DNA of 64,000 nucleotides, taken from Ruditapes philippinarum (lineage: Eukaryota). The notes under the pieces were generated by a model. That model did not search any database and was not told where the DNA came from. It saw only the letters and a list, made by a program, of their open reading frames with translations. A program made the position numbers and the translations under genes. Shown in pieces: positions 19,957 through 45,143 of this stretch. How positions within the stretch are numbered: the stretch's first letter is position 1; the number at the start of each line of letters is the position of its first letter. The stretch spans positions 62,001-126,000 of the forward strand of contig NW_026867332.1 of NCBI RefSeq assembly GCF_026571515.1, given 5' to 3'.

Positions 19957-20197
19957 CTTTAATCATTGGACCGAAATGAAAAGGTATGATAGCAAATATC
20001 TATATCGGTCGATGTTCAAATATGAACAATTGAAACACGTGCCCTTTGATAACGTAAAAGCTGAAACAATTACATTATGGGAGGTGTAGATGTACATGTA
20101 CTTGACATAACCATTGTTTAAAACTGCTTAAAAGAGGCTACACAACAAAATATTTAGACAGTAGCCATTGAAATCGTTTTACTTGAAATATAACAGG

Positions 20198-23100
20198 ATG
20201 GCAAAAATACTATGTTTGTTGATATTACTTGTTTCTTCATTTACATCTACGTTGAGTGAATCTGATCCGATCTCGAAACAAGGGTATACGCTGCCAGAAG
20301 GACATCCAGAACGCTGTTTTATTATGCTAGCTGGACACAAAGATCTTCGGCGTTTAGAAGCTCTCCCGGGTGGTGGCTGGGACAACCTACGTAATTATGA
20401 CATGGGCGCTGTTGTTCAACATACTTATCACAAATGTATGACAACAGAAGATGGTCGTTTTCTGATACCAGATAGTATAACGACGCTCCCCATTAAGACG
20501 AGTGGTGTTGACACGATTTCAGAGTTCTTTGATCACTGGGATAGCTACACGAGTGTTTCTTCAAGTTCAATCAATTTAGAGGTTGGGGTATTCGGGATAC
20601 CTATCGGCGGTAAATTTTCCACAGAGTATGGGAGTATAAAATCAAAGCAATTTTCTGAGAAAAGTTCGACAACTCGTATGCAAGTGAGTAAAGTTTAACA
20701 ATTTTATTCAAAGGAATATTTGTTTAACTATTCACTTCAAAATAAGTTAAAATTAAGAATTATTAATATGCCAATACAAAGCTTTCTTCCTTGACTGAAT
20801 TAAGTATTTCATGGGTATGCTTGATGATACGGCCTTATTGTCCTCATATTCAACAAAAAATTTGGTTTCATGAAAACTATACTTTTTATGATTTTAGTTC
20901 AGTTCATTTGAACATATAACTGCATTGGAATTCAAATTGTGTTAACCGATTTAATAACTTGAAAAAAATAATGAAATACTTCGATAATTATATCGTACGT
21001 TAAGCCGTTCCGCAAGTTCCCTTAAAACACCGCCGTCTGAACCATAGCCTATATTTGAGACAAGGTGGGCCATGAAAAACTCCAATGGAAAATGCTTAAC
21101 TCTGGCATAAGAGGTCACAACACTTTAATGTGTCAAAAGTTGTTTTTTTAAGATAATAGGCTAAATAAGACAGATCATCCCATGAACAATCAAGTTACTT
21201 CTGGAGACTTCAGGGATCGGTGCTTGGACTAATTCACTTTCTTGCATACATATATGATCTCCCACAGGACGTCCGCTTAAAAGTTTGCGTCTTTTTTTTT
21301 ATTATACTACTATGGTACGTGGTATCTAGAATGGGAATGTAGTTCAGCCCATTCAATTGTCAAGTAATCCATGTCACAAAAAGGAAACCCATACCAACTT
21401 ATTAATTTGTAACGACGGGCCAGTCTAGAGGCTGTACGTAATATCGATAAAATACCTGGGCGTGTACATATCTTATGTACTCTCAAAAAGCTGGGCGTGT
21501 ATATCTAATGGTTTCTTAAAGGTCCAGCACATAAACAGGTCAACCAAAAAAGGCAAACTAAACACTTGGCTTCTTATGTCGTAATATGAAATTAAACTCA
21601 GAACCTCTTAAGACCCTTGATTGACTACAACTAAAATATATGCATCTGATATCTGGTCCCCAATAGCCAAACTCAAGTTGATCAGATAAAATCTGTCCAA
21701 AGAAGATCTGCGCCTTAGATCAAATCTTTGGACGTACATCCAGTGTTACCAAGATGCTGGAGTCATTTAATTTGCACCAACTAGATCTTTGTCGTATTGC
21801 CTGTAGTTTCTCAATGGTTTGCACAACTAATGATATAGTCACCATCCCCATAGAATGTCATCTCACCCCATTAGGAAGAGCCTCCCGACATGCCTCCATG
21901 CTGAGTTACAGGTTAATCTAAGCCCAAACAGACTATTTTTTTTTTCAAAAACAGTTTTCCACTTCCCTGATGTTTTGATATATTGACACACTAGAGTAGT
22001 TCAATATTGCTGTTAGCCAAGTTGAGCATATCTCACCAATTTATTTTATTGGTATATTATGTTGTATATACTTAAGGTCTTTTATTTCTCTATTTAACTT
22101 TTCTTGACGCACGGGGGGGGGGGGTATCAGAATAGTAGTATGACTGTTTCAAGTAATTGTGGTAACACATATGACGCCGATGGAGAGCCGTTGGAGAGAT
22201 CACACCAGTGTGCTCATCAAAAAGGTTATATAAACAATTTTTAACATATTTCCTTTTTAGTTGCGCTATCGGAAGTACAATGTCATATTAGAAAACGGAT
22301 ACTCACTTCATCCTTCGTTCAAGAGCCGTCTCCAGAAGATAGCGGCACATTTGATGTTAGATCGAACACGTCTCGCTTCTTACGAAAGTCAGCTGCTTGT
22401 TCGAGACTATGGCACTCATGTGATAAACAACGTTGAGCTTGGTGCAACACTTGTCAAAGTAAGAATCTGATATGTTAATATTTTCTGATTAAATATATAA
22501 GAATTCGTACCATCAGAAAATAAATGTAATAAAAACAAAATTCAAACAACAATAAATAGAAAAGAAGAAAAAAAACCCCAAAAGAAAAAGTTGCAACTTG
22601 TATGCTAATAATATTCTGCTGTATTTAATAGACGGATCAAATTACAATATCGCAAGATGAAAGCTCTCAAACTGACTTTCGGCACATAGCAGCATCTGCA
22701 TCTGCTATTGTGTTCTTTGAAGAAGTTGGAATCCAATTCGGTGCATCGTATTCTAATTCAAAATTTGATGAAGCAGTTAACAAGTACAAACAATCAAGAA
22801 TGTCGTCTAAACTTTCAACACTTGGTGGAGATATTTACAAGTAAGTTCACGTCTTCCTGTGATACTGATCAATGTTTAATAACACGACGTCGCTTTGTTG
22901 AAAACTCAAAACGAGGGCTGCTAAAAATAATCGCGGAATTTAATCGTAGAACTCTTAAAATTAGACCCAATAAAAAGGTTAAAGTCACGAAACAAGACTT
23001 TTTCAATCAAATATATCGATACATAAAATAGTCACATACATTTATTAACACCATGAAACATACATTGCCGGGAATCAAATTGATACAACGTCATTCATAA

Positions 23101-26016
23101 GTCAAGTGAACCCATGCCTTTTTTGAATCCTGCGAGACAATGCATTCATTTCCGGGTCAAAGGGTCAAAATGATGAATCCAAGTTTCATTGACCATAATT
23201 ATGTGATCAATCCAAAAACATTTCGCCCTAGCGCCCAAGCCGACGTAGAAAACGAGTCGAATAGGCAACTCATCATACTTGTAACTGTCCTTCAAACGTA
23301 TGGGAACCTATCTGGCGCTGACCTTCGATATCACTAGGTCCTGATTCATAATAAGGGAAGGGTAAAGCAGGATACGCCTAGGTCATCAGAAATTACGCGT
23401 ACCGTAATTCGCCGAAAAGCATTAACCGTATCTTAAACGCCGAACAAAATTGACGTCGTCACAGTTGCTGGGTTTACTTGATGTGGATCGTCTTTAAGCG
23501 ATGTCCTGCCTTTAAAAAACAGTTCATGTCACTTGTTTACAATTGATTCGCTGAAAAACTTAATTGTAGCAGCCGACACTTCAATCATGTCTATGGAGTA
23601 GAGTCTCCTTTGGCAATTTACCCAGGCCAACACAAAAATTAAAAAAAAAAACTTCACGTGATTCTTCTAACTTTTGACGACAAGAAAGCACCTGCGAGAC
23701 TTAAAGGACAATGTTACCGTAACGAATATTGTAGTAACATCGTCTTCCAAAGAAATGTCTGAAGAAGATACTTGAACGTCTGCTAAGTTCGCGCCATTTT
23801 TTTTCTATTCCGAAAATGACGTTTTTGCGATATAAATGTAAGAATACAAAGAGTTACAAATGGAGCCCAGCATCAAGCAAAACAAGGGTTAAATTCTATG
23901 GTTACGAGCATTTTGGGCGTTTATTGAGAACGTACTTTGATCTTTACACAATCTATACGGATGACATTAATAGATAATAACGATAAATATAGAGATAAAA
24001 TATTAGAACATAAATAAAAGAGAGTAAATGCAGAATATCTTAAACTCATCGAACAGCTCCCTTGTACAACTTTATACATAAATATTAACGTCGCGTTGTC
24101 ACAAACCATATACTTTCAAATTTACACGAAAATATGATATGATTTCATGTGAATTAGGAATTGAAAATAAATGAACAACGCCTTATAACATGTATTATGC
24201 ATTATGCCCACTATTGAAAAGATATTTCTTTGGTGTTTTTCACTATTCCTTCTTGATTATATTTTATGACAAACGACTTGTAGTCATTGACAGTTTTTTT
24301 ATGTCAATATGGAGGTGACTGCAAATTTCTTTGCTTTTGTGATCTACGCTAAATAGAAGTTGATAGACAAATTTAACTCTCAAATTGTTTTTTAAAAATC
24401 AGCTGTCACATTTTTTACTTACAACTCAAGTTTTTTATTTCAAGTATGAAATTATATTTTTGCAGCTTTCTTTTGCCATCATACTGTTGTAGAAAAGTAA
24501 TTTAATTCATTTTCTTCTTTTCAATTTTAAAATGAAATCAGATGTCTAATAAAATCTAATAGGATAAAAGTTACATGTACGTATATTTGTTATTGTTTTT
24601 TCCAGACCAACACAATTTTCTGCTGAAAACTGGAGCAGCTCGATTGAAAACAATCTTGTGCCACTAGATAGATCGGGGGACCCATTATATTTATTCGTTA
24701 ATGAAAACAACCTACCTGGTATACCAGAGTACATTATAGAAAGAGTTCATGCCTATGTCAAAAAAGCTGTTTATCGTTATTACATACAAAATGTACATAA
24801 AGGATGTACGGTACGAAACGCGCCAAATTTTAGCTTTCAGGCTAACGTTAATGATAGTACATGTGATCCGCCTAAGACAAATTTTACTTTTGGGGGTGTT
24901 TATCAAACGTGTTCGAACACAGGTTATGTAAATCTATGTGATGGAATGTCTGTAAAGAATCCATTAACTGGTGACTTCAGTTGCCCAAACAACTACGAAG
25001 CTATTCGCATCAACAGCGGAAAAAAGACCCAACAAAGAAATAGAGCTGTGGTTACGAAATGTGGCTGGTTTAAAAAGTGTGCCAAAAATGTTATAGACAC
25101 TGCAAGTGCCGATTATGAAGCATATTGGTGTGCTAAAATCGATACAAGCAGTCCCGGTGGATATATGTTTGGCGGTTTGTATACCACACATACACATAAT
25201 GTGGTTACACAAACAAGAGAATGTCCCACATACTTTACTTCGTTAACTATACTTGAAGACCTAACTATATGTGTAAGCGATGACAACGAACAAGGTTCAC
25301 AATTTAATCTTCGTTTCGCAGGCTTATTCAGCTGTGTTGGAGGAAATCCAATGGCATTGGACTCTAGTAAAAGAAGAGACAGAAATTATCCCAACTCCTG
25401 TCCAGAAGGGTATAGCCAACATTTAGCGGATGTAGATGACGGATGCGAGATAAATTATTGCATACAATCCGGCGCAATAGCAATGGAACAATTACCGAAA
25501 ATAAAGTTACCTCCCTATATGTCAAGACCTTTAGACATACCACAGGAAGAGACAGAAGATGATTCGTCAGTGACCATTTTCAGTAGTGATGGTACCAGTT
25601 GGTCTTCTTTAGAGGATGAAGTTGTTAAAGCAGCTTCCAGTAACAACACTTTAACATTTGAGTTTGCAAAACAAACAGCACTCAATATCCCTTACATCAA
25701 ATCTTTGGTTATGGCAAATGTATCCAGCGAATTTATTACTAATCTTGGGAGTGGAAACATGTTGGACGAGTCAGATGTTAAACAGTCTGCACTGAAAATG
25801 ATACACAACCAAAACAATTTAAAACTTGACAAGGAAAGTTCTCCAGTTCTGAGTAATGCACATGATGAAACTAGCAAAAACCATAAGCAGGTTTCTACTG
25901 TTACAGTTGCGGTAATATCTGTTAATGGGACAATTCTCTGTGTGCTGATAGTATTAGGCATAGCATGGGCAATCAGACGTAGAAGAGGTGCAGCGTTACC
26001 ATATCAAAAGATTTGA
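20198..26016 (+). CDS. MPEG1: Perforin-2 / macrophage-expressed gene 1 (MACPF + P2 domain + TM), paralog A, 4 exons, 767 aa
   Basis: Exons 20198-20683, 22261-22458, 22632-22840, 24606-26016 (2304 nt). Signal peptide; LEALPGGGWDNLRN, TTEDGRFLIPD, RDYGTHVI, DRSGDPL, FTFGGVYQTC, KNPLTGDFSCP, FGGLY, CPEGYSQHLA; TM helix and short tail RRRRGAALPYQKI. Confidence 0.96.
21060..21960 (+). mobile_element. Heavily decayed CR1/L2-like LINE reverse-transcriptase fragment in MPEG1-A intron 1
   Basis: Frame-broken remnants reading WKMLNSGIRG, IKYLGVYI, GFLCRNMK and YASDIWSP, in RT C-terminal order. Confidence 0.55.
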
Positions 26017-28829
26017 TGATTTAATATAACTTACTGAGCAAAAACAGATACATGTACATGTATCTAGCAATATTTTAGATTTTTTATACATATATAATTG
26101 AAGCATATATAGCATGTTGTCGGTCTAGGAATTGACATTTGTAATTTTGTATTTATGTATTAGATGCTTATACAAGTCATTTAATCATAAACTTGTTATA
26201 CATGAGACAATTCTCTGATATGTATGATTAACATGTAGATATGTGTAAAACACATAATCATATAAATCTGCGTCATCAACAATGTCATGGTCTCTCTTAA
26301 TCCTCAGTTTGATAATCCCTACAAAAATATTACATTTTTGTGAAAATTGATATGAAAGGACAAACATTAATACTAATTTAACATTGCTGACATTAATGTC
26401 TGACCAATGCATCGATAGATCTATTCGGGACTTCTATGAAATATGTTTTAATATCAGTGATAATGAATTGCAAACAATAAGCAGTATTTGGTTAATTAAA
26501 TTTACGATTTCAGATGACACTTGTAGGGTTTTCTACTGAGTGACACCCGAGTTAACGGGAAGACAGCAAAATTTAATCTTGAATAATATTGCTTGCCTGC
26601 TAAGAACAATCTAAAGTCTTATATCTCATCCTAACTCTTTCTTAGTTTCCATTGTAAAGCTTAAGAGCAAAAAAGTTCTACTTCTACTACATCTACTTCT
26701 TTTGAAATTTTCTATCAGACAATCCAGATTTTTTTAAAAACTTTACGTTAAGTAATATTTGAATACAAAATTGTTTCATACAGTTAGCCATGGATGTATA
26801 TAAATCTGTATTTTTTGATAATCTTAATTAGATTTTCAAAAACTTATAAAATATTCGATTTTTGAAATTGTATTTTTTTCTATAAAAACGTTTCTGAATG
26901 ATTGTAAAATTATATTATGCGAGCAATTGGCAAGTTAAATAAATTAAGAATTGAAGTTATGTGAATGTTAATACTATTTATTACTATCAGATATTAGAAA
27001 TTAGAAAGTTTACGGTCGGAAACAATCCTGTTTTCATTGATAATCTTTTTTTTTCACTTTATAACACGGGCCTTATCAAAGGCCCGTTCCCCTTCACAAT
27101 AGGAGAATACTGGGTGTATTATACCATTTCACAATTACAAATATCAGCTACAACTTGATGAGGTCAGAGCTGTTTAAACAATTCATGTTGAATTATCTCA
27201 AAGTTGTTTTTATAAGAAAAAAGTGGCTTGTTTATTGATTTGATTATCATAGAATTGGGTCAATATTGCGCCGCTTCTTTTCTCAAAATTTCAAGAAATG
27301 TGTTTTGTCTTCTCATATCAAAACTCGCCATTGTGTTTGTAATTCAAATGATCTTTCATCACTATATATGCATATCCATGCGATAAAAGCATAATAAAAG
27401 GTAAAATGAAGTAAAACAGCAGGGAATCAAGCGTCCTTGATTTCATTTTGATAAAACTCAAATAGTTGCCGTTATTTGAGTAAAGAAAGAAACCCTTTTA
27501 TTGGCCTACCAGCATATACATGTATTATCAAATGGTCCTCATCCGAGGGTAGGTGTCTATGAATGATCAATCTCCTGGATTGAACACAATACATTATTGG
27601 AGCAGTACCTCTGGGCGCTTGCAGAAATCATGATCACAAAATAGACAAATATTGTTTTTTTTCGCCGATATTTAATTATTCATTCGTTATCATACATAAA
27701 TCGGTGTGAAAAGATGAATTAGACCTATTAAAATTCATTCCGTTGGGTAAAAAGGCAAGATGTTTGCATTTTATGATTCAAGCGCCCTGCCCGGTATATA
27801 CCGGAATACGGTTTTAAGTGTGGTGCTCCAATCCTTTTTGGCTTGCAGCCGTGTTGGCTTGCACGGCTGCAAGCCATTTCATATGGAAAACTTGTTCCGG
27901 TTAGGTGGTTTCATGCTTACATCTGTTGGTGCATGATTGAACTGGAAACCAGCTCCAATCGGGCCAATCGCAACTTTTCGGCCTTTTCCGTCACTCTTCG
28001 GATTAAAGATAATAGCCGATGTAGTTCCGATTGCAATCGTGACAATTCGGGCGATTCCGTCATACTGCGGAATCAGACGAAGTAATATTACGGAAATCTA
28101 AGCTATTTTAGTTACTTCGGTAATCCCAGTTTGTTTATATAAAAAGGATTTCTATTTTTACTTGATTTATCGGTTTAAATCGTAATAAATTATAAACGAA
28201 ATTGCTCCGTTTCAATTGTTTTTCAAGACGCAAAAGTTAGTTTCTTTTATAATTGTTTTTTTTTTGTCTGTATTAGTTTTATACAATAGAGTAGTATTCC
28301 GTCTTCAAGGGTGGTCCTGCTTACCAAATCACGCATGATCGAGTTATATTTAGATCTACTGAACGCAATTCAACTTCTTGGTGAGGTAATCTAAAAATAG
28401 CCCATGCATATCATTAACCTTGCCACGTGCTAAACTACAGATAGCGCATCGTATTTGTGATCGTGTAACATAGTTGATACATGCTTATTAATTGGTACCA
28501 CGTAACGAAGTATTTTAGTGCATTTACTTGTCTGTAAAGCAAACGAATGATTTCTCTGCGAAAAAGGGGAAATGAAATGTGCACACTTGTTTCCCTTCAG
28601 TATCCACGTTTTACGATTGATTATTTTCTTTATTAGTTTTATACAATAGAGAATAGATGACAAAAAATATTCGTTTTACAAAAAAAAAAACTAAATACCC
28701 TGTATGATATACAAATACCGTAATTCAAAAAAATTGTGATAATAAATTGAAACCAAAAAAAAAAAATTTTAAAGGGTTGGGATGAAGGCACAACTGTGCA
28801 AGCCTTTCCTTTTAAAAGGAAACTTTATT

Positions 28830-29589: not shown

Positions 29590-30405
29590 AAACGCAGTGA
29601 TCTCCCCTTATCAATACATCTATCAATATTTTGATATTTATATTTTTTAACTTTTTAATTTATTTTTCATTATTTTGTATACTTTTGATAATTTTTTGAT
29701 AAAATATAACGGACATAGGTAAAAAAAGTTAAAAATAAAACAGAAAGAGAAAAATGACGTTAGATTTTCTATGTAACGGTCTACATTTCAATTTCGACGT
29801 TACGTCATGTGACTTTCATCATCATGTGACGTCTGTGAAGGCAGTGATTACAATTCAGCCAAGGGAGGTAATCACTGTGAGGAGTTTGATGAAAGATGTC
29901 ACCGCTCAAAGCATTTCTATGAGAAATGGATAGTCTGATGGAAGGCAAAACTGGCAACTTTAAACAGTACAAAATATAGGTAGATTAAATTTCCTGATCG
30001 ATTGAACATAACTAGAATCTAACATAACTAGCAACTGCATTTATCTAAATTCAACTGTTCATTTTAGAGAATTATCTTGACGAATCAACATCTTAAACGG
30101 ACAATTTACAGTTTTACATTTGTTAACGCTACAGTACTTTTACAAGTTTATAGCGGTTACAGATCAAAGGTATAGTGACCTTATAGTATATTTTTATGGC
30201 TTTCGTTATCAAACATGATTCATCATCTTTCAAGGTTAAGTTTATTTTTTTACACACCTATAGTTAGCAAAAAAAATACTGGAACGAAATTTCTATTACA
30301 GGTTTTTGGTTATTTTTTTAAAGTATCATTTAACTTTATTTACTTCTTTAGAATAAATAGATATTACATATTTCTATACTTGAAGAACGTTATATTTATT
30401 TGTAG

Positions 30406-31810
30406 ATGGATAGACGACAAATGAATAATATAAAAACTGTGAGTGAATTGGACTCCTGGGCTAAAAGACATGGTTTATCTATATAAAATGACACAGATTA
30501 CAGTCTACGTCGACTCCAGCTTCTTGCAGACAGTATTTCAAAAGAGCTTCCATTATCCTGTGAAGAATGCGGGGCGAAATTTAAACAGAAGTCTAATTTA
30601 CTGAGGCATCAAAGGACAATGCATGGTAAAAGCGACTGCGCTATCTGTCCTTACTGCCAGAAGAAATTTAAAAGACAAGATAATTTAAATCATCATCTTC
30701 GACACCACAAAGAAAACGTTGCACCAATCAATGAATATCAGGGAGAACAAAAACAATCTAAGAAAAGGAAATTATTTACAGAAAATCAGCAGCCATTATT
30801 AACAGCAAAGCAATTAAAGAAATCAGGGGATATTGAGAAGCCATGCAACTGGTGCTCCCACAAGAAGGTTTTGTTACCTGGTAAACCCTTCTGTAAATCA
30901 TGCGGCGACCAGGGTAGGGAATGAAAGTGGTGCCATCGTCCACTGCCAGAAAGGTTCTATAGCATAGGAAATGAAGTCTGCGATTCATGCCACAGACGAC
31001 GAGAAAAGTATATAAAAAGTCAAATTGGTGGGGGACCAACCATAAAAGCTCTCAATGAAACTGCAGAATCTACTACTTTGGAACCTTCCTCAAACAACAA
31101 ATGGGACTTACTTCAGTTTTTAAAAGACAATGACGTCACCATATCAGATATTCTTATGACACGCTTAGAAAGATTGAAAGGTATGAAATGGTTCATGACG
31201 TTATTTGTTAAATTTATCAAATACAATCAAAACAATGAAGCCGTTTATGCTGAACCTGTATTTAGATCCTCTAGCTTTGCATGTACAAATGCTTCTCAAA
31301 TTGAGGATCAAATTGCCGGGGCGTTCCAAGATTTACATAATGGTTACCAAAACTTTGAAAGGGATGGCAGTGGGTGGTCTATTGACACGATTATTAAGCT
31401 TGAGGTCAATACAGCAGAGTATGCACCCTTAGTTGGAAGTAGTTACCTACCTTTACCTAAGAAAGTACAAGATAAAAAAGCTGTATTAAATAAGAAATGA
31501 CGATCAAAAATGCTTCATCTGGTCCATTCTCGCGGCATTGCATCCAGTCACAAACGCAGATCGTGTTAGCCACTATAAGCAGTTTGAACACGAATTAAAT
31601 TTAAATGGTATTGACTATCCTGTACCTATTTCTCAAATTTCAAGGTTTGAAAAACAAAATAACATTTCAATCAATATGTTTGGGTTAGAACGCAACGAAC
31701 TATTTCCTCTTCAAATCACAGATCAAAGAAACATGTCACAACACGTTAATCTCTTACTTTTTTCTAGAGGAGATGTTAGACATTATTGTTTGATTAGAAA
31801 TCTGAGTCTA
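30406..31810 (+). pseudogene. N-terminal part of a Polinton/adintovirus protein-primed DNA polymerase B polyprotein (C2H2 fingers, CxxC clusters, terminal-protein-like region, vOTU-like domain); truncated
   Basis: One frame from ATG 30406 with stops at 30484 and 30922 (the latter at a CxxC Cys position) and a frameshift near 31495. Motifs CEECGAKFKQKSNLLRHQRTMH, CPYCQKKFKRQDNLNHHLRHH, FERDGSGWSI, GSSYLPLP, NDDQKCFIWSILAALHP, FEKQNNISIN, HVNLLL, RHYCLIRNLS. No exonuclease or palm motifs follow. Confidence 0.8.
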
Positions 31811-32421
31811 AAGCACGTCTGTTGGCCACATAAAAATGAATTATGAGCCCATAGTGCTCAAAAGCCACACGTCTCCTTATGACAAAAAAAAGATATGTAT
31901 TTGGGCTCAAGCAAAATAGACCGCTCCCCCCCCGAAGGTTTATTTAAAATAAAGTCCCGAACCCCTTTCAAAAATTGTTTGAATGTATGGGTTTCAGTGT
32001 GCTAATTTTTGGGATTATATATGAATTTGGGATTTAAATAATTTTATGTTAAAAATGGAAATAAATAATTTATCATTTTAAAAAACAAAGTTGTTTTTTT
32101 TCTTTTTAAATTTACCCTTTAAATGAAATTTTGGGATAGATCCCATAGTTTATTACTCTTAACTCCTTTAAGCGACAGGTTTTGTAAAATTTAAAGGTTT
32201 TTTAAATACAGGGAAAAAGGCCCCGCAAAGATGTTTTTTTGTAAAATTTTTTCATCAAAATATAGCTAATAAAAAGATATTAAACAACTTCAACTTTATT
32301 CTGCATTTAAATCCAGGAAAAAATCTATTATATTTAACAGTACATAATTCCGCTCAAACAGTGTCATTTTTCATATCTTATTAACAAATCACGTCTTTGA
32401 AAGAGAACAATATAAGTTTAT

Positions 32422-34086
32422 TTAATCGTCGGTTTCCGAGTCACTAAATTCATCATCACTGTCCTCATGATCATCATCGCTATCATCGCTTTCAGCACCA
32501 TCAGAGTAAAATTCTTCAAGAAATGCCTCAAAATAACTTTTGTATTTTCCCACTGTCAGGCGAACAGCACGTTCGAGTTCCATCTTTTGTAAATATTTCT
32601 CCACAGACTTCATTATTTTGGTATACACATGTCCTCCTCTCAATTTCAGTATATAAGATAGGAGAGTAGTAAACTTTTTCATAAACACATGAATGTCTTC
32701 TTCGCGCAGTTTTTTATTTGCTTTCTCCTCAGCCTCATTCTCAGAAAGTCCTTGTGTTACATATTTCTGTACTTTATCTTGCCATTTTTGAATATTTGTT
32801 TTCTTCGTTAACTCGGCAAGTTCGTTATAGACTTCATTTTCACTATCTTTGTTCGTCGCACTGCTATCTTCATCATAGCCGCATTTTACCCTCTTGGTGG
32901 GTATGACATCTTCGTCTAAAGTTTCACGCTTCAGTGATTCTTGCTCAGGACACCAAAGTTTTACATGATTTTGAAGGTCATGTACGTTTTCAAACATCAC
33001 ACCGCAGTCGTCACAAGCAGGCATTGTCACTTTGTTTGAATAGTCTAGTTTTGGCTCTGTAGGAAATTTCTGATTTTGGTCAGAATTATCTTCTCTGTTG
33101 TGCTCTGGAAAATACGTCCGCACAGTTTGAATGTCTCCTTTTAAATGATGACTTTGATAAGCTGCATTTTCCTTTATACTAAATATATTAGTGCGCATGC
33201 GCATTGCTTCCGATGTGGTTGGTTTTAAGTCTAGAATTAGATATCCGTATGGCTGGCTTACAGCACTGTCAAAAATATCTTATCATTTCTTTAAAATTTG
33301 AGGGGTACATCTGCCTTGCCAGAGTTGCAATGGGCTGCATATCTACCGGGTTATTAAAGAATACCAAGTAATGACAATTTCTGCGCTGTGTTGGATCCTT
33401 ACTCAAATACAAGTTTTGATTTAAGGCAATCACTGATAGATTCCTGTGGTGACTTCCTTCTGTAAATAGGTCTGTAACTCGTTGATCTTTCGCAGTTTCC
33501 GATGCCATATCGTCCAGAATAATAAGATTTCTGATAGTCGTCGTGTCAAGAAATTCATCCTTTTCCAAATGTAAAGGCACTCCTTTGATGAACTCTACTT
33601 TTGTTATGACAGATGCCTTGATTACATCATAGAGCGGCTGCCACCTTTTATACAACCAAATGATTCTTTGTGGTGATGGTTTTATCTTATTGAAGGCTTG
33701 TTGCAGTAACTGAACCACGAAGAAAGTTTTACCTGAAAACATAATACAAAAGCATAAAAAATATTTGATACACCATAACGTGACACAATTCAATTTTGTG
33801 CATTAAAATATTTAGGAAGGATAATAAATAAATAAAGGATAATAAATAAATAAATAAATAAATAAACATACGTACCACTGGATGTGGGTCCCGATACCAT
33901 ACATGTAAATGGATGTTGAAACTTGAACTCTTGCTGCTGCTGCTGCTGCTGCTGTTGCTGCTGGAGTGTATGCATACTGTAGTTCTGCTCTGTATGACTC
34001 TCAATGTTGTTTTGCTGCTGTTGCTGCTGCTGCTTTTGGAGTGTATGCATACTGTAGTTCTGCTCTGTATGACTCTCAATGTTGTT

Positions 34087-34145
<59 letters not shown>

Positions 34146-34192
34146 GTGTATGCATACTGTAGTTCTGCTCTGTATGACTCTCAATGTTGTTT

Positions 34193-34223
<31 letters not shown>

Positions 34224-34320
34224 ACATATACTCTAATTTTGGATGTTTTGTTTTGTAATGTCTTTTTAAGTCCTGTTCCCAAACGTAGTTTTTATCACAT
34301 AAATGACACTGGCAAGTCAT
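32422..34320 (-). pseudogene. Polinton-type A32/FtsK-HerA packaging ATPase, copy 1: two exons, N-terminal C2H2 + polyQ repeats, C-terminal ZnF/helical/acidic extension; one frameshift
   Basis: Exon 1 34320-33876 (MTCQCHLC..RHYKTKH..Qn..FKFQHPFTCMVSGPTSSG), intron 33875-33733, exon 2 33732-32422 (KTFFV..Walker B LIILDD..GSHHRNLS..NQN..RRNCHY..PYGYLILDL..RMRTNIF). Extra base near 33271-33275 relative to copy 2. Confidence 0.85.
33931..34221 (-). repeat. Coding compound minisatellite (CAG)n + NNIESHTEQNYSMHTLQ, 3 units
   Basis: Directly visible in ATPase exon 1, copy 1. Confidence 0.95.
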
Positions 34321-34397
34321 TTTGACGATGTTAACAGGTCCACGGTTCAGAGTGAAATGATTTGAGTTGACACTAAACCGCTTTTATATGTAGATAT

Positions 34398-35516
34398 TTA
34401 GAGATCCTGTAAGTCACTCTCCTTTATCCAGCTGTTGAATTTCCTTGGGTATCCCAACCATTTAACTAACACCTCAGTCAGTCCATTTCTTCTTCGTCGC
34501 TTTAATACTTTTTCCACTTTGAAAATATCATCACGACTTTTCTGCACCTTTTGTAGTTCACTGGAATAGAATGTTCCTTCCACTGAATCTCCATCATAAT
34601 CCACAACTTTGTATATTGCAATTCCTTACCGCAGATATCTCCTTTTTATTATGAAAATTTCTTCTGTCCATTTTTGCTGGTAATCTCGCTGAAATGTACG
34701 TCTGTTGCTGGAAAGTCTGACAAAGTCACCAACTTTGAATTTGAATGGCTTTGATCGTTGATGCTTTCTTTTCTTGCTCTGTGGTTTTAAAGAATCGACA
34801 TAAAGCCGCTTCCATATGGTGGCTTCATTGTTTGCAGTAACTTCATTTGGTAATTTCCCTCTCAAAGAAGAATGCGGTCTTGAGTTGTAGTTCCTGACTA
34901 AATCAGGTAAAATATCAAGATAATTGTATGTGCGTTTATGCGTGAAATATCTGTACATCAACGACTTCAAACTGCGTATCAATCTCTCGGCATAGTTAGC
35001 GTGTGTTATATTATGAGTGACGAAGTGATGGATTCCTTGTTTGTTGAGAAATGATCTCACCCATCTGTTTTTCCATTCGCTACCTGGGTCTGTTCTCACT
35101 TCTTTCGGCTTGCGTCCTGACTGTAATATCTCTTTAAAGCCATCTATTATAGAATATCATGTTGTTTATTCTTCAGTGGAACCACCCATGCATAACGAGA
35201 AAAAACGTCAATGGCAACGAATAAATATCTAATTTGGTCATTTTCTTTTGCTAAACTGGATACATCTGCCAGGTCAATGTCCCAAAGAAAATCTAGGCCT
35301 TGTGATATTACTTTTCTTGTCTTAAATTTATAACGCATTGGTCTCTGTAAACTGCATGTAAGCATCCACATTCTGCAACCACTGTCTTATAGCGTGAATA
35401 CCAACTTTGTATTTACCTTCCTTCTTCAAGAATTTGTAAATTTTTTCAGGTCCTGCATAACTTATAGGACTGTTCAAGTCAAAGTAAATATTTTGCAAGT
35501 GATCTTTCCAACTCAT
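34398..35516 (-). pseudogene. Polinton retroviral-like (rve, DDE) integrase with C-terminal chromodomain, copy 1, disrupted
   Basis: MSWKDHLQNIYFD..LWDIDLAD..IDVFSRYAWVVPLKNK..RTDPGSE..YAERLIRSLK..YNSRPHSSL..FKVGDFVRLS..WTEEIF..FYSSELQKV, then chromodomain VEKVLKRR..LVKWLGYPRKFNSWI. Frameshifts near 35355 and 35155; nonsense codon at 34626. Confidence 0.92.
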
Positions 35517-35678
35517 TTTCATAAAATGACAAGATATTAAAAATGCACTCGCATTATATGAGGATAAAGTTACACTCCTTATATAAACATTTACATCATG
35601 TCGTGAAATAGTTAACAAGTTATTTTGAATTATCTGATGTTTTCTTCACCTGCTACAATAAAGTGAAGTACCTATTGA

Positions 35679-35802
35679 CTGGGATATCGTATGTCCCAGC
35701 TATTGATAAGTTTACATGTTTAAACTTGTTTGTCTAAAACTGGGACATACGATAAGGGGTTATCGTACATCCCAGTCTAAAATTAGCACTTACTGGGAAC
35801 CC
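35679..35802. repeat. Inverted-repeat cassette or candidate element terminus upstream of the integrase (second copy 39102-39225)
   Basis: TATCGTATGTCCCAG (35685-35699), its exact reverse complement (35740-35754) and TATCGTACATCCCAG (35761-35775); ends CTTACTGGGAACCC followed by TTA. Confidence 0.75.
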
Positions 35803-35825
35803 TTAGTGCGGAAACAGAATATGTG

Positions 35826-37525
35826 TCATCCATCATGCAGCAGAGCTATCATTTTAGAGTAAAATTCTTCAAGAAATGACTCAAAATAACTTTTGTATTT
35901 TCCCACTGTCAGGCGAATAGCACGTTCGAGTTCCATCTTTTGTAAATATTTCTCCACAGACTTCATTATTTTGGTATACACATGTCCTCCTCTCAATTTC
36001 AGTATATAAGATAGGAGAGTAGTAAACTTTTTCATAAACACATGAATGTCTTCTTCGCGCAGTTTTTTATTTGCTTTCTCCTCAGCCTCATTCTCAGAAA
36101 GTCCTTGTGTTACATATTTCTGTACTTTATCTTGCCATTTTTGAATATTTGTTTTCTTCGTTAACTCGGCAAGTTCGTTATAGACTTCATTTTCACTATC
36201 TTTGTTCGTCGCACTGCTATCTTCATCATAGCCGCATTTTACCCTCTTGGTGGGTATGACATCTTCGTCTAAAGTTTCACGCTTCAGTGATTCTTGCTCA
36301 GGACACAAAAGTTTTACATGATTTTGAAGGTCATGTACGTTTTCAAACATCACACCGCAGTCGTCACAAGCAGGCATTGTCACTTTGTTTGAATAGTCTA
36401 GTTTTGGCTCTGTAGGAAATTTCTGATTTTGGTCAGAATTATCTTCTCTGTTGTGCTCTGGAAAATACGTCCGCACAGTTTGAATGTCTCCTTTTAAATG
36501 ATGACTTTGATAAGCTGCATTTTCCTTTATACTAAATATATTAGTGCGCATGCGCATTGCTTCCGATGTGGTTGGTTTTAAGTCTAGAATTAGATATCCG
36601 TATGGCTGGCTTACAGCACTGTCAAAATATCTTATCATTTCTTTAAAATTTGAGGGGTACATCTGCCTTGCCAGAGTTGCAATGGGCTGCATATCTACCG
36701 GGTTATTAAAGAATACCAAGTAATGACAATTTCTGCGCTGTGTTGGATCCTTACTCAAATACAAGTTTTGATTTAAGGCAATCACTGATAGATTCCTGTG
36801 GTGACTTCCTTCTGTAAATAGGTCTGTAACTCGTTGATCTTTCGCAGTTTCCGATGCCATATCGTCCAGAATAATAAGATTTCTGATAGTCGTGTCAAGA
36901 AATTCATCCTTTTCCAAATGTAAAGGCACTCCTTTGATGAACTCTACTTTTGTTATGACAGATGCCTTGATTACATCATAGAGCGGCTGCCACCTTTTAT
37001 ACAAACAAATGATTCTTTGTGGTGATGGTTTTATCTTATTGAAGGCTTGTTGCAGTAACTGAAACACGAAGAAAGTTTTACCTGAAAACATAATACAAAA
37101 GCATAAAAAATATTTGATACACCATAACGTGACACAATTCAATTTTGTGCATTAAAATATTTAGGAAGGATAATAGATAAATAAAGGATAATAAATAAAT
37201 AAATAAATAAATAAACATACGTACCACTGGATGTGGGTCCCGATACCATACATGTAAATGGATGTTGAAACTTGAACTCTTGCTGCTGCTGCTGCTGCTG
37301 CTGCTGTTGCTGCTGGAGTGTATGCATACTGTAGTTCTGCTCTGTATGACTCTCAATGTTGTTTTGCTGCTGCTGCTGCTGCTGCTGCTGCTTTTGGAGT
37401 GTATGCATACTGTAGTTCTGCTCTGTATGACTCTCAATGTTGTTTTGCTGCTGCTGCTGCTGCTGCTGCTGCTTTTGGAGTGTATGCATACTGTAGTTCT
37501 GCTCTGTATGACTCTCAATGTTGTT

Positions 37526-37563
<38 letters not shown>

Positions 37564-37623
37564 TGCTGCTGCTGGAGTGTATGTATACTGTAGTTCTGCT
37601 CTGTATGACTCTCAATGTTGTTT

Positions 37624-37658
<35 letters not shown>

Positions 37659-37755
37659 ACATATACTCTAATTTTGGATGTTTTGTTTTGTAATGTCTTT
37701 TTAAGTCCTGTTCCCAAACGTAGTTTTTATCACATAAATGACACTGGCAAGTCAT
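35826..37755 (-). pseudogene. Polinton-type packaging ATPase, copy 2: exon 2 open, exon 1 frameshifted, acidic tail lost at the duplication junction
   Basis: Exon 1 37755-37225, intron 37224-37082 (143 nt, GT-AG), exon 2 37081-35826. Same motifs as copy 1. Confidence 0.85.
37280..37656 (-). repeat. Coding compound minisatellite (CAG)n + NNIESHTEQNYSMHTLQ, 4 units
   Basis: One more unit than copy 1 and different CAG run lengths. Confidence 0.95.
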
Positions 37756-37832
37756 TTTGACGATGTTAACAGGTCCACGGTTCAGAGTGAAATGATTTGA
37801 GTTGACACTAAACCGCTTTTATATGTAGATAT

Positions 37833-38939
37833 TTAGAGATCCTGTAAGTCACTCTCCTTTATCCAGCTGTTGAATTTCCTTGGGTATCCCAACCATTTAA
37901 CTAACACCTCAGTCAGTCCATTTCTTCTTCGTCGCTTTAATACTTTTTCTACTTTGAAAAGATCATCACGACTTTTCTGCACCTTTTGTAGTTCACTGGA
38001 ATAGAATGTTCCTTCCACTGAATCTCCATCATAATCCACAACTTTGTATATTGCAATTCCTTGACGCAGATATCTCCTTTTTATTATGAAAATTTCTTCT
38101 GTCCATTTTTGCTGGTAATCTCGCTGAAATGTACGTCTGTTGCTGGAAAGTCTGACAAAGTCACCAACTTTGAATTTGAATGGCTTTGGTCGTTGATGCT
38201 TTCTTTTCTTGCTCTGTGGTTTTAAAGAATCGACATAAAGCCGCTTCCATATGGTGGCTTCATTGTTTGCAGTAACTTCATTTGGTAATTTCCCTCTCAA
38301 AGAAGAATGCGGTCTTGAGTTGTAGTTCCTGACTAAATCAGGTAAAATATCAAGATAATTGTATGTGCGTTTATGCGTGAAATATCTGTACATCAACGAC
38401 TTCAAACTGCGTATCAATCTCTCGGCATAGTTAGCGTGTGTTATATTATGAGTGACGAAGTGATGGATTCCTTGTTTGTTGAGAAATGATCTCACCCATC
38501 TGTTTTTCCATTCGCTACCTGGGTCTGTTCTCACTTCTTTCGGCTTGCGTCCTGACTGTAATATCTCTTTAAAGCCATCTATTATAGAATATCATGTTGT
38601 TTATTCTTCAGTGGAACCACCCATGCATAACGAGAAAAAACGTCAATGGCAACGAATAAATATCTAATTTGGTCATTTTCTTTTGCTAAACTGGATACAT
38701 CTGCCAGGTCAATGTCCCAAAGAAAATCTAGGCCTTGTGATATTACTTTTCTTGTCTTAAATTTATAACGCATTGGTCTCTGTAAACTGTAAGCATCCAC
38801 ATTCTGCAACCACTGTCTTATAGCGTGAATTTACCTTAAATTCCTTCTTCAAGAATTTGTAAATTTTTTCAGGTCCTGCATAACTTATAGGACTGTTCAA
38901 GTCAAAGTAAATATTTTGCAAGGGATCTTTCCAACTCAT
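37833..38939 (-). pseudogene. Polinton rve-chromodomain integrase, copy 2, disrupted
   Basis: ORFs 38763-39041, 38582-38809 and 37833-38534 are consecutive pieces. It shares the frameshift at KNKQHD with copy 1 and has a private indel near 38830. Confidence 0.92.
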
Positions 38940-39963
38940 TTTCATAAAATGACAAGATATTAAAAATGCACTCGCATTATATGAGGATAAAGTTACACTC
39001 CTTATATAAACATTTACATCATGTCGTGAAATAGTTAACAAGTTATTTTGAATTATCTGATGTTTTCTTCACCTGCTACAATAAAGTGAAGTACCTATTG
39101 ACTGGGATATCGTATGTCCCAGCTATTGATAAGTTTACATGTTTAAACTTGTTTGTCTAAAACTGGGACATACGATAAGGGGTTATCGTACATCCCAGTC
39201 TAAAATTAGCACTTACTGGGAACCCTTAGTGCGGAAACAGAATATGTGTCATCCATCATTCAGCAGAGCTTTCATTTTACTTTAAATTCATAAAGTGTCG
39301 TCTAATCTAAATTATAGTTACAATATGTGTAGTTTAAATCACAGTTTTATTTTTTAAAAAAATGCCTCGAAATTTACGCTAGCTAATTTAGGTAACAAGG
39401 AAATTCCGTTGGAAAATACGGATCTAAAGATAGATGGAAATTCCAATGAAAAACCGGTTCCAACTGGATTCAAGAAATCTAAAAATAGCTCGATCCTGAA
39501 TCCTGAGGCAGAACTCTCATTTCCCTATATCATCATGTGACCCCTTCCGTTTCACTTCAACTCTTTGATATGCATTTGTTGCATCAACAATTACTAGTAA
39601 TTATTTTTCAGCAATATGGGGTTTTACAAAATCTTAGACTATGGAAAGGTATCATTTGAAATTGTGCAAGTCATTATGTATTGCGTGTTTTGTATGACTA
39701 AATACGTCAATAAATTCTATATATCTATCTATATTAGGGAAAACCGATACGCTTGAATATTTCTTTTGAATTGATCTGACATGTTGTAATGATAATACTT
39801 ATATCTCTGCTCATTATAGTTATATAGTTCGACGTTTAAATGTTAATTTATTAAACAATGGAATAAAGTTGAATAAATTAGTCTTAACGAGAATACCTTA
39901 ATTTATAGTCGTATATACTATTGGTATTTGGTGTTGTTAAAATAACGGTTGTTCAATAACGGA

Positions 39964-42900
39964 ATGGCGAAATTACCTTTTCTGTTAATACTTGTTTTTA
40001 CAGTTTCATCGGCGTTTAATGAATCTGATTCAATACCGAAACAAAAGTATACGCTGCCAGAAGGTCATCCAGAACGTTGTTTTATTATGCTTGCTGAACA
40101 CAAAGATCTTCGGCGTTTAGAAGCTCTCCCTGGTGGTGGTTGGGACAATCTCCGTAATAAGGACATGGGGGCAGTTGTTCAGCATACTTATCACAAATGT
40201 ATGACAACAGAGGATGGTCGTTTTCTGATACCAGATAGTATAACGACGCTTCCAATTAAGACAAGCGGAGTAAGCACAGTGTCAGAGTTCTTTGATCACT
40301 GGGATAGCTACACGAGTGTTTCTTCAAGTTCCATTAATTTAGAGGTTGAGGTATTAGGGATACCTATTGGAGGTAAATTTTCCACAGAGTATGGGAATAT
40401 AAAAACAAAACAAATTTCTGAGAAAAGTTCGACAACTCGTATGCAAGTGAGTCAAGTTTTACAACTTTATTCAAAGAAATATTTGTTTTACTGTTTTAAT
40501 ATTTGTTCTACAATCACGTTTTCATCCTTTATTTAATTAAGTATAGTTATTACAGTGGATTAATAATATCTAGAATTAACATGTTTAACATAAATAAATA
40601 TATGCCTATCTAGAAAACCATGTTTTGTAAGGTTTTTGTTTAGTTGATATAGAAATCTTTTTGCATCTGAATTAAAATGCTAGTAGGATTTATTATTTTC
40701 TTGTAAAGGCATACCGGACTGATACAGGACTGCTTCAACTTACTTTGTTAACAAATATGACGCCGATGAAGTGCGTTCGGATGATTCCTTTTTTTTCCAT
40801 TAAAATAAAGGTTAAAGAAACAATTTAAGTCTGTTTCCTTTTTAGTTGCGCTATCGTAGGTACAATGTCATATTAGAAAACGGATACACGCTTCATCCTT
40901 CATTCAAGAGCCGTGTTCAGAAAATAGCGGCTGATTTGATGTTAAATCGATCACGTCTCGCTTCATACGAGAGTCAGCTGCTTGTACGAGACTATGGCAC
41001 TCATGTGATAAACAACGTTGAGCTTGGTGCAACACTTGTCAAAGTAAGAGTCTTTTATTCTACTATATGATGCTAGAATATAAGAATTCGTACCTTCACT
41101 AAATTTATAAACAATGAACAAATAATCAGAAAACATCAACAAACAAAAAATGCTTTTAAAATGAATGACTTGGGTTATATTTATTTATGTTATATTGATT
41201 AATTAATTGATAGTTTTATAGTTATAAAATAAATAAAATGCATAATCAAAGCCTACCTTAATCTAAAAAAAGGACGGTGCGGCCCATCATATTTTATTTG
41301 AATAATTTTGTTCTATGCACTTGTCCTATATTAACTTATGCTCAAGTTATGCAGTGACGGCGTGGCCAAGTGGTTTTGTCGTACTAGTAATCAAACGATT
41401 GATGGCCGCATGGGTTCAACCATGATCAGGGGCAAGCTGTTGCTTCCGTGAATAAGAAACTTTACACTCATTGTTGGCGTCCGCGCCGAAGCGCGGCGCT
41501 CTTATGGAATGAGATCAGATTTTGTGAAAGGGCGACAGCAACTTCTCGAGCCTTTTAGTCGGTCATAATAAAAGCCGAAAATTCCGATCGGTATGAGGGT
41601 GCTTGATTATTAAATAAGAATGAAATGTCGCGATATGTTACAATGAATTTTCGCAATGCAAACATTTACAAATGAAATAACCTTTTCCGTCAATAAATCG
41701 CGCTCTTCGGGGTTTTTTATTTATCATTTTGTAGTACACAGTCGGTTATCATGTCATGGTATGTTATTGTTGTACATGTATCCTAGAATGATCAGTTGAT
41801 GACCTAAATATTCCAAAAACCTATTTATAGATATATCTTTTTATCACTCCTATCGGTAAATGCCGGTCTCTCCCGGTCTATTTTGACCAGGATTTACTAG
41901 TGACCGGCGAATAGTACCACACGTTTATTGTCCAGTCTCTCCCGATTTTGGAGTAGATGTTTGATATCGTTACAATTGGAAAAAAACAACAATAGCATGT
42001 TTCATTTTATCTATATGAGATAAAAACAATAAATATGTACACGGATTTATATGTAATATAAATCCGTGATATGTACAATAATTGAGAAAAAGGTACATTT
42101 TTTATGGTATTAAAATGACATTATCAACTTTGAAACATTTTATTTAATTATTCAATTTGTTATCCGTGTTTAGTAAAGATGCCGAGGAATTTTTCAAAGT
42201 TACAAATTAGATTTTATGAATTATTCAATTGATCGATAATTTAAAAAATGATAAAGAAAAATACAATGTACATGTACATGGTTTAAGAATAAACAATATT
42301 ATATATTGAAAGATAAACCATAATTTACTGACTTTTTCCAGTTAAGCTTTTACTTATAATCGTCGGTCAATATGACAATTGAATTCTTAAAATTTATTTT
42401 ACAATTTTAATAAAAAAGAGTAGTAAAAACTCAGTATTAAAATAGCACATAAAACACAAAAAAGAATAAAAGAAAACAATATTCATAAAATTTGTATTTT
42501 TTTTTAAATTAAAATTAATAGATATTACAATTATTGTATAATAAACAATTATGCTCAACATGATCAACATGGTAATATAACCAGTGTCATATTTTTACTA
42601 ACTTAAAGTGTGAACAGATACCTTAAGGGGGTCTTCGCTAATAGCGATAACATGTACATAATAAGGGACAAATGTGTGGTACGTGTTGATCATGCGTTAC
42701 ACATATGGATTATAAATGATTGCATACATGTATATCCGTTGCTATTAATAACCACGATCATAAAGAAATAACAAGTAATATTCTAATCTCTAGCATGCCA
42801 ATCAAAGTTCATAATGAACAATGTCTTTCGTCCGCTCATTCATAAGTGGTATACATTTCTGGTAGTTTATAACATATCTTGTCATCATATGTGTACTAGT

Positions 42901-45143
42901 TCATCTTCACTTGCTGCATTTCTTGCTTGGACGCCCTTTGATGCTTTGCATCAATGCTTTTCTTGTACTGGTTTGTTCCAGGAAAAGATTCGAGACTGTT
43001 AAAATAAGCTTATAGCTTCGAACACAATCGAACTAAAATAAATTAATATAAACTAACTAATGATGAATTTGACAGACAGATCAAATAACAATATCACAAG
43101 ATGGAAGCTCTGAATCCGACAGTCGGCAAAGAACAATATCTGCAGCTGCTGCCGCGTTCTTTGAAGAAGTTGGCATCCATTTCGGTGTTTCGTATTCTAC
43201 ATCATCATCGAATGAAGCAGTAAACAATTACAAAAATTCACGATTGTCCTCTGAAATTATAACACTTGGTGGAGATATTTACAAGTAAGTTCAACATACC
43301 GCTTAAATTTATAAATGTTTCTAAGTTTTCAAAAATAATATACATGTAATGGGTTATTTATATAACGTCACGTTGTCATCATCACTAAGTACATTTGTAG
43401 TTTCAACTGTACTCTATCATGAAATTATGTTTTCAATTATATCAGAAATAAACAAGTTTTTCCTGCATATGACGCCATGTCGACCTTATGTTATATTCTT
43501 TAAATTTTTTACAAATAACGCTTTATTTGTATAATTTTACTGTCTATTGAACCAATGTCTTTGAGTAGTTAAAATTAAGCGATTTTATCTTGATGATTTA
43601 TTATTGTGTATTTCTAAAAATATAAACATGTTGGGTCAATGTTTTTCTTTGGATAAAAAAAGTATACATGAAAATATTTTCATGTGCTTATACTTGTATA
43701 TATATTTTATAATTTATATATTTTATAAATAATTTATATTTTGTCAGCTTTCACATGCCATCACACTGTTCTTTTTGTTGTTTATTTGTTTTTATGTCTT
43801 CTTGTTTATATATAAAATAGAAGAAAATAATTGAATTCAATTTCTTCATTTCTTTATACTGTAAATGTTTTTGTATTCTTTTGTTCAGGCCAAGTCAATA
43901 TTCTGCTGAAAACTGGAGCAGCTCAATTGAAAACAATCTTGTGCCACTAGATAGATCGGGGGACCCATTATATTTATTCGTTAATGAAAACAACCTACCT
44001 GGGATACCAGAGTACATTATAGAAAAGGTCCATAGTTCTGTCAAAAAAGCTGTTTATCGTTATTACATACAAAATGTACATAAAGGATGTACGGTACGAA
44101 ACGCGCCAAATTTTAGCTTTCAGGCTAACGTTAATGATAGTACATGTGATCCGCCTAAGACAAGTTTTACTTTTGGAGGTGTTTATCAAACGTGTTCGAA
44201 CACAGGTTATGTAAATCTATGTGATGGAATGTCTGTTAAGAATCCATTAACTGGTGACTTCAGTTGCCCAAACAACTACGAAGCTATTCGCATCAACAGC
44301 GGAAAAAAGACCCAACAAAGAAATAGAGCTGTGATAGTGAAATGTGGCTGGTTTTTTCATCTTGGAAAGTGTGCCAAAAATGTAATAGACATTGCAAGCG
44401 CCGATTATGAAGCATTTTGGTGTGCTAAAATCAATGCAAGCAGTCCAGGTGGATATATGTTTGGCGGTTTGTATACCCAACATATAGATAATGTGGTTAC
44501 ACAAACAAAAGTATGTCCAGCATACTTTATCCCGTTAACTATACTTGAAGACCTAACTATATGTGTTAGCGATGACTATGAACAAGGTTCACAATTTAAT
44601 CTTCCTTTTGCAGGCTTATTCAGCTGTGCTGCAGGAAATCCAATGGCATTGGACTCTATTAAAGGAACAAACAGAAGTTATCCAAACTCCTGTCCAGAAG
44701 GGTATAGCCAACATTTAGCGGATGTAGATGACGGATGCGAGATAAATTATTGCATTCAATCCGGCGCAATAACAATGGAACAATTACCGAAAATAAAACT
44801 ACCTCCTTATATGTCAAGACCTTTAGACATACCACAGAAAGAGACAGAAGATGATTCGTCAATGACCATTTTCAGTAGTGATGGTACAAGTTGGTCTTCT
44901 TTAGAGGATGAAGTTGTTAAAGCAGCTTCCAGTAACAACACTTTAATTTTTCTAATTCATAGTAATGCACTGGATGCTACTGATAAAAACTACGAGCAGG
45001 TTTCTGCTGTTACAGTTGCAGTAATATCTGTGACTGGAACACTTCTCTTTGTGCTGATAGTTAAAGGCATAGCTTGGGCAATCAGACGGAGGAGAGGTGC
45101 TACGTTGACATATCAAAGATTCGATGATTTAACATATATGTAA
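39964..45143 (+). CDS. MPEG1: Perforin-2 / MPEG1 paralog B, 4 exons, 714 aa
   Basis: Exons 39964-40446, 40846-41043, 43076-43284, 43889-45143 (2145 nt). Same intron positions and phases, and the same MACPF/P2/TM motifs, as paralog A. Confidence 0.96.
41350..43060 (+). mobile_element. tRNA-derived (CORE-like) SINE split by a later insertion; halves 41350-41473 and ~42958-43060
   Basis: Head ggcgtggccaagtggtt..gggttcaacc; body aagaaactttacactcattg| resumes after the insert as |ttcttgtactggtttgttccagg, then an AAAT/AACT-rich tail. Confidence 0.65.
41474..42958 (+). mobile_element. Helentron/HINE-like insertion (~1.5 kb) inside the SINE
   Basis: T-rich target, subterminal inverted repeat GGCGTCC (41476) / GGACGCC (42929), and 3' hairpin TTGATGC-TTT-GCATCAA (42938-42954). 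Confidence 0.7.

Follow-up and report, generated by a model that had tools for sequence, protein, structure and literature searches.

A real, inherited intron of spliceosomal type divides the ATP-binding loop of a Polinton-like ATPase in Ruditapes philippinarum, and parallel introns are found in a sister lineage; elsewhere the core genes of such elements are described as intronless. We put a probability of about 0.78 on the reading that this GT-AG intron in the Walker A motif arose a single time, in the common ancestor of one bivalve subfamily of the elements, and is routinely removed by the host spliceosome, so that the P-loop would exist only after splicing. Since introns at this position or close by also occur in distant relatives, intron-bearing Polinton-like elements likely need the host splicing machinery. 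Animal Polintons may be autonomous nuclear viruses, giant-virus parasites or mere transposons, and an intron that must be taken out before the ATP-binding loop can form ties expression to the host nucleus, providing a life-style marker that can be scored across genomes. The locus described here is of little interest alone; its value lies in the family pattern.

Results

The intron in the Walker A codon

The window, by which we mean the whole 64-kb stretch of DNA that was analysed, holds two head-to-tail copies of a 3.4-kb integrase and ATPase unit (32503..39279). In ATPase copy 1, splice-offset analysis places a phase-1 GT-AG intron of 143 nt at 33733..33875 on the reverse strand, with the donor after the first base of the Walker A Gly codon; the next exon resumes with the rest of Gly-Lys-Thr. 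Only 1 of 19 offsets across the P-loop gives GT/GC..AG ends in the window. The intron starts with GTACGT and finishes with a T-rich tract and CAG, which provides the U2-type features of a GT donor, a pyrimidine-rich tract and a YAG acceptor, and its position is kept while its sequence drifts in two relatives, L001 and L005, as is also expected of a U2-type intron. A branch-point search near the acceptor found a loose match only, 75 nt upstream of the acceptor. G+C content is 20%, against 35–40% in the flanking kilobases, a (TATT)n run lies inside, and read-through from exon 1 meets an in-frame stop about 28 codons into the intron. The initial annotation had proposed a spliceosomal intron that splits the Walker A motif, AT-rich and with a (TATT)n tract and an in-frame stop, and it was right in each of these respects. 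We found no further copy of the intron in the 64-kb window outside the tandem duplicate, and none among 65 loci.

Exon 1 of copy 1 (33876..34320, reverse strand; open frame 33790–34383) encodes a C2H2-like zinc finger, a polyQ repeat linker, the first strand of the ATPase and the first half of Walker A. The zinc-finger label is read from the sequence, and the same one-frame architecture occurs in three uninterrupted relatives (L003, L012 and L060). Exon 2 (32422..33732, reverse strand; frames 33269–33802 and 32422–33279, with Pfam) encodes the rest of the A32-type ATPase, a second zinc finger and an acidic tail; it has a frameshift near 33270 and an ATTAAA overlapping its stop. Since uninterrupted relatives encode the order zinc finger, linker, ATPase, zinc finger and acidic tail in one frame, splicing yields the ordinary family product.

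The best protein match of the window ATPase is the RefSeq model XP_060578727.1 of Ruditapes philippinarum, whose first 58 residues are the end of the exon-1 frame and whose last 153 are the exon-2 frame of copy 1; this model may rest on protein alignment alone. It matches Pfam PF04665 (Pox_A32) at 32.8 bits, compared with a curated cut-off of 22.8, and exon 2 alone reaches 22.0 bits, just under that cut-off. The expectation that ORF-based annotation would overlook the intron is borne out for ORF callers, which miss the P-loop, but not for RefSeq, where this model already spans the intron.

Relatives with and without the intron

A search by ATPase alignment gave 63 related loci, 59 from metagenomes and 4 from genome bins. 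Walker A is uninterrupted in 37 of these, some of them identical to each other. The window's site is occupied by a GT-AG intron in two loci, L001 (124 nt) and L005 (163 nt), and 12 others have a GT-AG intron of 87–412 nt at a second site 6 nt upstream. A further 12 were left unclassed: nine lack the 5′ part and three are ambiguous, with a second-site acceptor and no donor at the expected place in L059 and damage in L040 and L049. The genome contigs contributed 4 ATPase loci, all uninterrupted, and 1 integrase locus, whereas viral contigs gave no ATPase alignment in 15 candidate stretches and a single weak integrase match of 25 residues. The family check proposed with the initial annotation, a search for other copies with the same intron, thus succeeded with L001, which also has terminal repeats, and L005.

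In each of the 14 intron-bearing loci, just one of 19 offsets yields GT/GC..AG ends. The solutions fall on two offsets in all, both of them phase 1, so that all ATPase-domain introns lie within 6 nt of each other. Downstream of them the alignments cover some 185 further codons without a GT-AG intron; the sole other insert (L058) was not resolved as an intron. If the intron is retained, the first stop falls 9–47 codons after the P-loop Gly (14/14). Exon 2 is open for 424–447 codons in four of the 14 loci, and in the other ten its frame is short owing to breaks or contig ends. Among the 120 protein homologs listed, 48 have the whole P-loop and others begin with acceptor-like read-ins at either site. 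Animal-type ATPase also appears in bacterial genome bins (P0053 and L060–L063), several of which are named as mollusc symbionts; this is likely host DNA in the bins.

A second intron, in the integrase gene, marks the second-site lineage. This phase-1 GT-AG intron of 95–257 nt occupies one site in six loci, two of them identical (L026:2106–2221, L030:2196–2452, L031:2419–2539, L035:2015–2109, L046:1610–1725 and L047:1612–1775), and lies in the Gly codon that directly follows a conserved aspartate in the integrase core. It is absent from the integrases of the window and of L005.

Divergence and phylogeny

Over about 150 codons the window protein is 70–74% identical to those of L001 and L005, with pS of 0.84–0.94, which is saturated, and pN of 0.15–0.19. 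Intron identity between the same sequences is 0.50–0.56, compared with 0.47–0.55 for shuffles. Because the same site is used in relatives that are about 71% identical and whose intron sequences no longer align, and because one contig skips the intron exactly (see below), these comparisons make the intron an inherited trait of mobile lineages rather than an inactivating insertion. Among four close second-site copies, which are paralogs or alleles, dN/dS is 0.07–0.33 in 5 of 6 pairs, the remaining pair having no synonymous change, and the introns are 76–94% identical.

A first tree of 86 rows was made by quick search only, with 4 short loci dropped, and a careful, unrooted tree was made from 37 hand-picked rows with LG+G4. 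For the trees, 14 ORF calls were classed by eye from acceptor-like N-termini and not from DNA, and in the careful tree such calls make up 4 of the 7 same-site rows and 5 of the 10 second-site rows. A branch with weak support (88/60) sets the seven same-site rows apart from the others, and they and an uninterrupted sister group together form a clade with support of 100/100. The second-site rows group elsewhere in the tree, in a clade (98/98) to which the uninterrupted locus L024 also belongs. Placing both intron sites in one clade was rejected (p-AU 6e-5), while holding the second-site rows together without L024 was not (p 0.12). L024 has neither the ATPase nor the integrase intron, yet keeps the junction-side codons of the second-site clade, and may represent a double intron loss or a basal position. 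L055 and L057 use the second site but fall outside its clade, nearer uninterrupted rows (their sequences are short), a position that hints at a third intron gain. Two gains and perhaps one loss would be the simplest reading of the unrooted tree, in which the direction of gain or loss depends on the root.

Putative transcript evidence

None of the 24 runs listed as containing this sequence is on record as RNA, which is evidence neither way. We aligned four runs to the window: two contig sets, X1 and X2, both only guessed to be RNA, and two sets of raw reads, X23 and X24. One X2 contig (record 12; 1663 nt, with 21 other letters) covers 32281–33733, and its loose 159 letters open with 30 letters identical to window 33877–33906. 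The intron is therefore skipped at the exact predicted junction (33732|33876) in one contig of one run that is only guessed to be RNA, and no joint row is listed. This record derives from another copy, which lacks the break of copy 1, and its source may be a DNA copy that is about 98.5% identical and has no intron. Depth within the intron is zero in X2 and close to zero in the two contig runs taken together, although contigs drop rare forms; the X1 contigs end short of the junction. X23 and X24 are labelled RNA. They gave 107 and 100 aligned reads, on both strands, of which 72–81% run into unlike sequence, and GATC stands at the start or end in 9 of the 12 loose-end rows shown. We read both sets as proximity-ligation DNA (GATC chimeras, both strands) and set them aside as RNA evidence. 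The search for spliced reads across 33876>33732 that had been suggested at the outset was thus answered in part, by an exact skip in one putative RNA contig, but by no junction read in X23 or X24, which look like DNA.

The window locus

The tandem units span 32503–35856 and 35856–39279 and are about 97% identical, with 24 mismatches plus indels in repeats and no synonymous change in 149 ATPase codons; the duplication is either a very recent event or an assembly artefact. The intron of copy 2 (37082..37224, reverse strand) matches that of copy 1 at 142 of 143 nt. The initial annotation had pointed to this second occurrence, and the identity is as close as claimed, but it adds no independent evidence because copy 2 is part of a near-identical tandem duplicate. 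By reading frames, exon 1 of copy 2 (37225..37755, reverse strand) changes frame inside the polyQ repeat, and exon 2 (35856..37081, reverse strand) is open for 417 codons, its tail lost at the duplication junction. Each unit also has an intron-free rve integrase on the reverse strand, with a C-terminal chromodomain in copy 1, identified by reading frames and by Pfam on copy 2: that of copy 1 (34398..35516) is spread over four frames and that of copy 2 (37833..38939) over three. The copy 1 integrase is 72–83% identical to the unbroken integrase of L005. Both window copies are a decayed, duplicated, broken remnant.

Searching the window with the L060 and L034 ORFs for the capsid-like protein and the protease gave no match, and no terminal repeats were found around the window element, although they are present in its relatives L001 and L034. 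Because it has no such repeats, we file the element as Polinton-like and not as a complete Polinton. The role of its ATPase as a packaging motor is a predicted one only, because the window copies are broken and stand without capsid, protease or terminal repeats.

On the forward strand at 30487..31807 lies a broken zinc-finger ORF, presumably the N-terminal part of a Polinton polymerase. It has no match to a Pfam polymerase domain, and its nearest atlas cluster is unnamed, the commonest taxon being Preplasmiviricota, on 5 of 87 members. Beyond 31807–31808, the other copies seen in three runs carry different sequence, and X2 diverges below about 32350; the intervening 31808–32350 either does not belong to the element or is badly assembled. 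In one X1 contig, sequence resembling 30140–30169 runs straight on into 30403. The skipped part (30170–30405) is bounded by GT and AG and may therefore be an intron in the 5′ untranslated region of the polymerase-like ORF; the junction letters are not an exact match. Short imperfect palindromic repeats occur upstream of the integrase at 35685–35776 and 39108–39199, and a 45-nt stretch (39491–39535) is common to the window and the upstream region of L005. Host paralogs of the MACPF (MPEG1-like) family flank the element on both sides (20165–26288 and 39946–45425), and a CARD-domain ORF is found at 11956–12708.

Composition of related elements

L001 is a 4.2-kb contig (1–4242) with 339-nt terminal inverted repeats (94%) that contains the intron-bearing ATPase, small ORFs (one Lys/Arg-rich) and a CARD-RING gene, and has no integrase, polymerase or capsid match; its end resembles the start of L059. 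Capsid-like or protease matches occur at six loci (L015, L033, L034, L036, L040 and L060), none with an intron, and no capsid or protease is linked to any of the 14 intron-bearing loci, whose contigs are 1–9.5 kb long. The capsid label comes from an atlas match (score 0.98) to double-jelly-roll clusters in which the family name is on 22–30% of members. In L034 (403–6013) a capsid-like gene, a protease and an uninterrupted ATPase lie within inverted repeats, and L012 (1–10582) combines a polymerase, an uninterrupted ATPase and an integrase, with no capsid match. These two modules suggest modular or split Polinton-like genomes.

Discussion

We propose the following history for the intron. Because Polintons are not known to have an RNA polymerase of their own, transcription would fall to host RNA polymerase II in the nucleus, and an intron arising at a G|G site in the P-loop of the subfamily ancestor would, for that reason, have cost little. 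Exact splicing would restore the ATP-binding loop and, with it, the normal protein with its two zinc fingers, linker, ATPase domain and acidic tail. The elements would have kept moving with the intron over a long time, and the sister lineage likely gained an intron of its own 6 nt upstream and another beside a catalytic aspartate of the integrase.

That the 143 nt are instead an inactivating insertion whose GT-AG ends arose by chance is hardly credible. A 4-nt direct repeat does flank the insert, as a target duplication might, but this repeat is absent from L001 and L005, which have introns with GT-AG ends at the same offset and of unrelated sequence; the exact skip in one contig and the lack of another copy of the insert in the window also argue against it. 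Domestication by the host, with the intron marking that step as has been proposed for the bivalve TLEWI transposons, we regard as very improbable, and it is largely refuted at the window locus. In its favour are the existence of a putative transcript, the host gene model and the lack of detectable terminal repeats at the window copy. However, neither the window ATPases nor their integrases are intact, the read sets contain other copies that differ from these and have different continuations, L001 combines the intron with its 339-nt terminal repeats, other intron-bearing relatives lie beside integrase genes, and the second-site family consists of several diverged copies. The initial annotation had offered an early domestication step as one possible meaning of the intron, and these observations speak against it.

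A single old P-loop intron might have slid by 6 nt in one lineage and been lost many times, making the uninterrupted relatives derived. Both sites are phase 1 and only 6 nt apart, and L024, inside the second-site clade (98/98) without either intron, looks like a precise loss; on the other side, this history requires many losses where two gains and one loss suffice, a single clade of the intron-bearing rows was rejected, L024 may be basal, and published Polintons are, in the text available, described as intronless. We consider it unlikely. Quite unlikely, in our view, is a regulated switch, in which retention gives a zinc finger–polyQ product or degraded RNA, splicing gives the ATPase, and selection explains the repeated gain in the P-loop. 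The confinement of all 14 ATPase introns to 6 nt, with none resolved in the downstream codons, fits such a switch, as do the hint from L055 and L057 of a third gain, at the second site, and the stop that always follows retention. Yet the retention peptide is not conserved, the stop varying over 9–47 codons, the coding strand of the intron contains no poly(A) signal, contig depth there is next to nil (a weak point), and 37 of the 63 loci do without the intron. Clustering could moreover occur without selection, as the Gly codons of an invariant motif would offer G|G proto-splice sites. The early/late switch envisaged in the initial annotation is therefore unsupported, and we retain the reading of a routinely removed intron.

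The initial annotation had also suggested a lineage whose packaging motor depends on host splicing. Dependence on splicing is consistent with an intron that is a lineage trait (L001 and L005) and with the putative RNA skip; packaging by the ATPase stays putative, given that none of the 14 intron-bearing loci, which lie on short contigs, is linked to a capsid or protease. A broader possibility, which we hold only tentatively and would sooner doubt than accept, is that several Polinton-like lineages of marine invertebrates each acquired spliceosomal introns independently, within the catalytic loops of the ATPase and the integrase, and remained mobile elements under purifying selection. The core enzymes of these lineages could then be made only by way of host nuclear splicing, and some of the lineages would move as small modules with terminal repeats, either ATPase with cargo or integrase with ATPase, that belong to a split, multi-part system. 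If this is true, expression in the cytoplasmic factory of a giant virus would be ruled out, and the host or the element would have a splice gate on the ATPase. There is also a practical consequence. ORF-only surveys assume that such viral genes are intron-free, an assumption stated in the available text of PMC9356565 and applied in that of 10.1101/2025.04.19.649669. The P-loop intron contradicts it, and intact elements of these lineages would score as dead.

In the literature covered, we came across no description of spliceosomal introns in the ATPase or integrase gene of animal Polintons; Repbase, Kapitonov and Jurka 2006, the 2024 supergroup review and the adintovirus supplementary maps lay outside this scope and may record such introns. 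Word searches of papers on adintoviruses, nematode Polintons and bivalve transposons, within the text accessible, found no passage on them. As far as the available text goes, the core genes of 134 intact vertebrate elements are intronless (PMC8097293), a finding presented there as consistent with Kapitonov and Jurka 2006, and nematode elements have introns in cargo genes only (10.1101/2022.07.12.499685). Group I introns are carried by cryptophyte elements.

A viral parallel is seen in adenoviruses, and Pfam Adeno_IVa2 matches one relative of the window ATPase (P0039). The related adenovirus IVa2 packaging ATPase is made from a spliced nuclear transcript, but there the intron is close to the start of the coding sequence rather than in Walker A. 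In its gene content, the window element resembles Polintons/Mavericks (adintoviruses, Eupolintoviridae). An A32/FtsK-type ATPase stands beside an rve integrase with a C-terminal chromodomain, a domain that the text available of PMC11071296 names as typical, and uninterrupted relatives of the ATPase adjoin a double-jelly-roll-like capsid gene and an adenain-like protease (L060 and L034) or a protein-primed polymerase (L012). It differs from them in its split P-loop and in the lack of capsid, protease and terminal repeats at the window copy. Spliceosomal introns inside Polinton-like elements are shared with dinoflagellate Polinton-like viruses, where, according to the portion available of PMC12166617, they are young, repeated introner copies, mostly acquired after integration and depleted from coding regions. 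The intron described here, in contrast, is old and fixed at one catalytic motif across elements; its sequence is no longer alike from one lineage to the next, and apart from the duplicate the window contains it only once. Among bivalve DNA transposons, spliceosomal introns have been acquired by the Tc1-like TLEWI family, whose members are described in the accessible text of 10.1101/656579 as low-copy, devoid of terminal repeats and domesticated. The present elements are similar in being a bivalve family with such introns but, unlike TLEWI, their intron-bearing relatives keep terminal repeats or integrases and occur as diverged copies.
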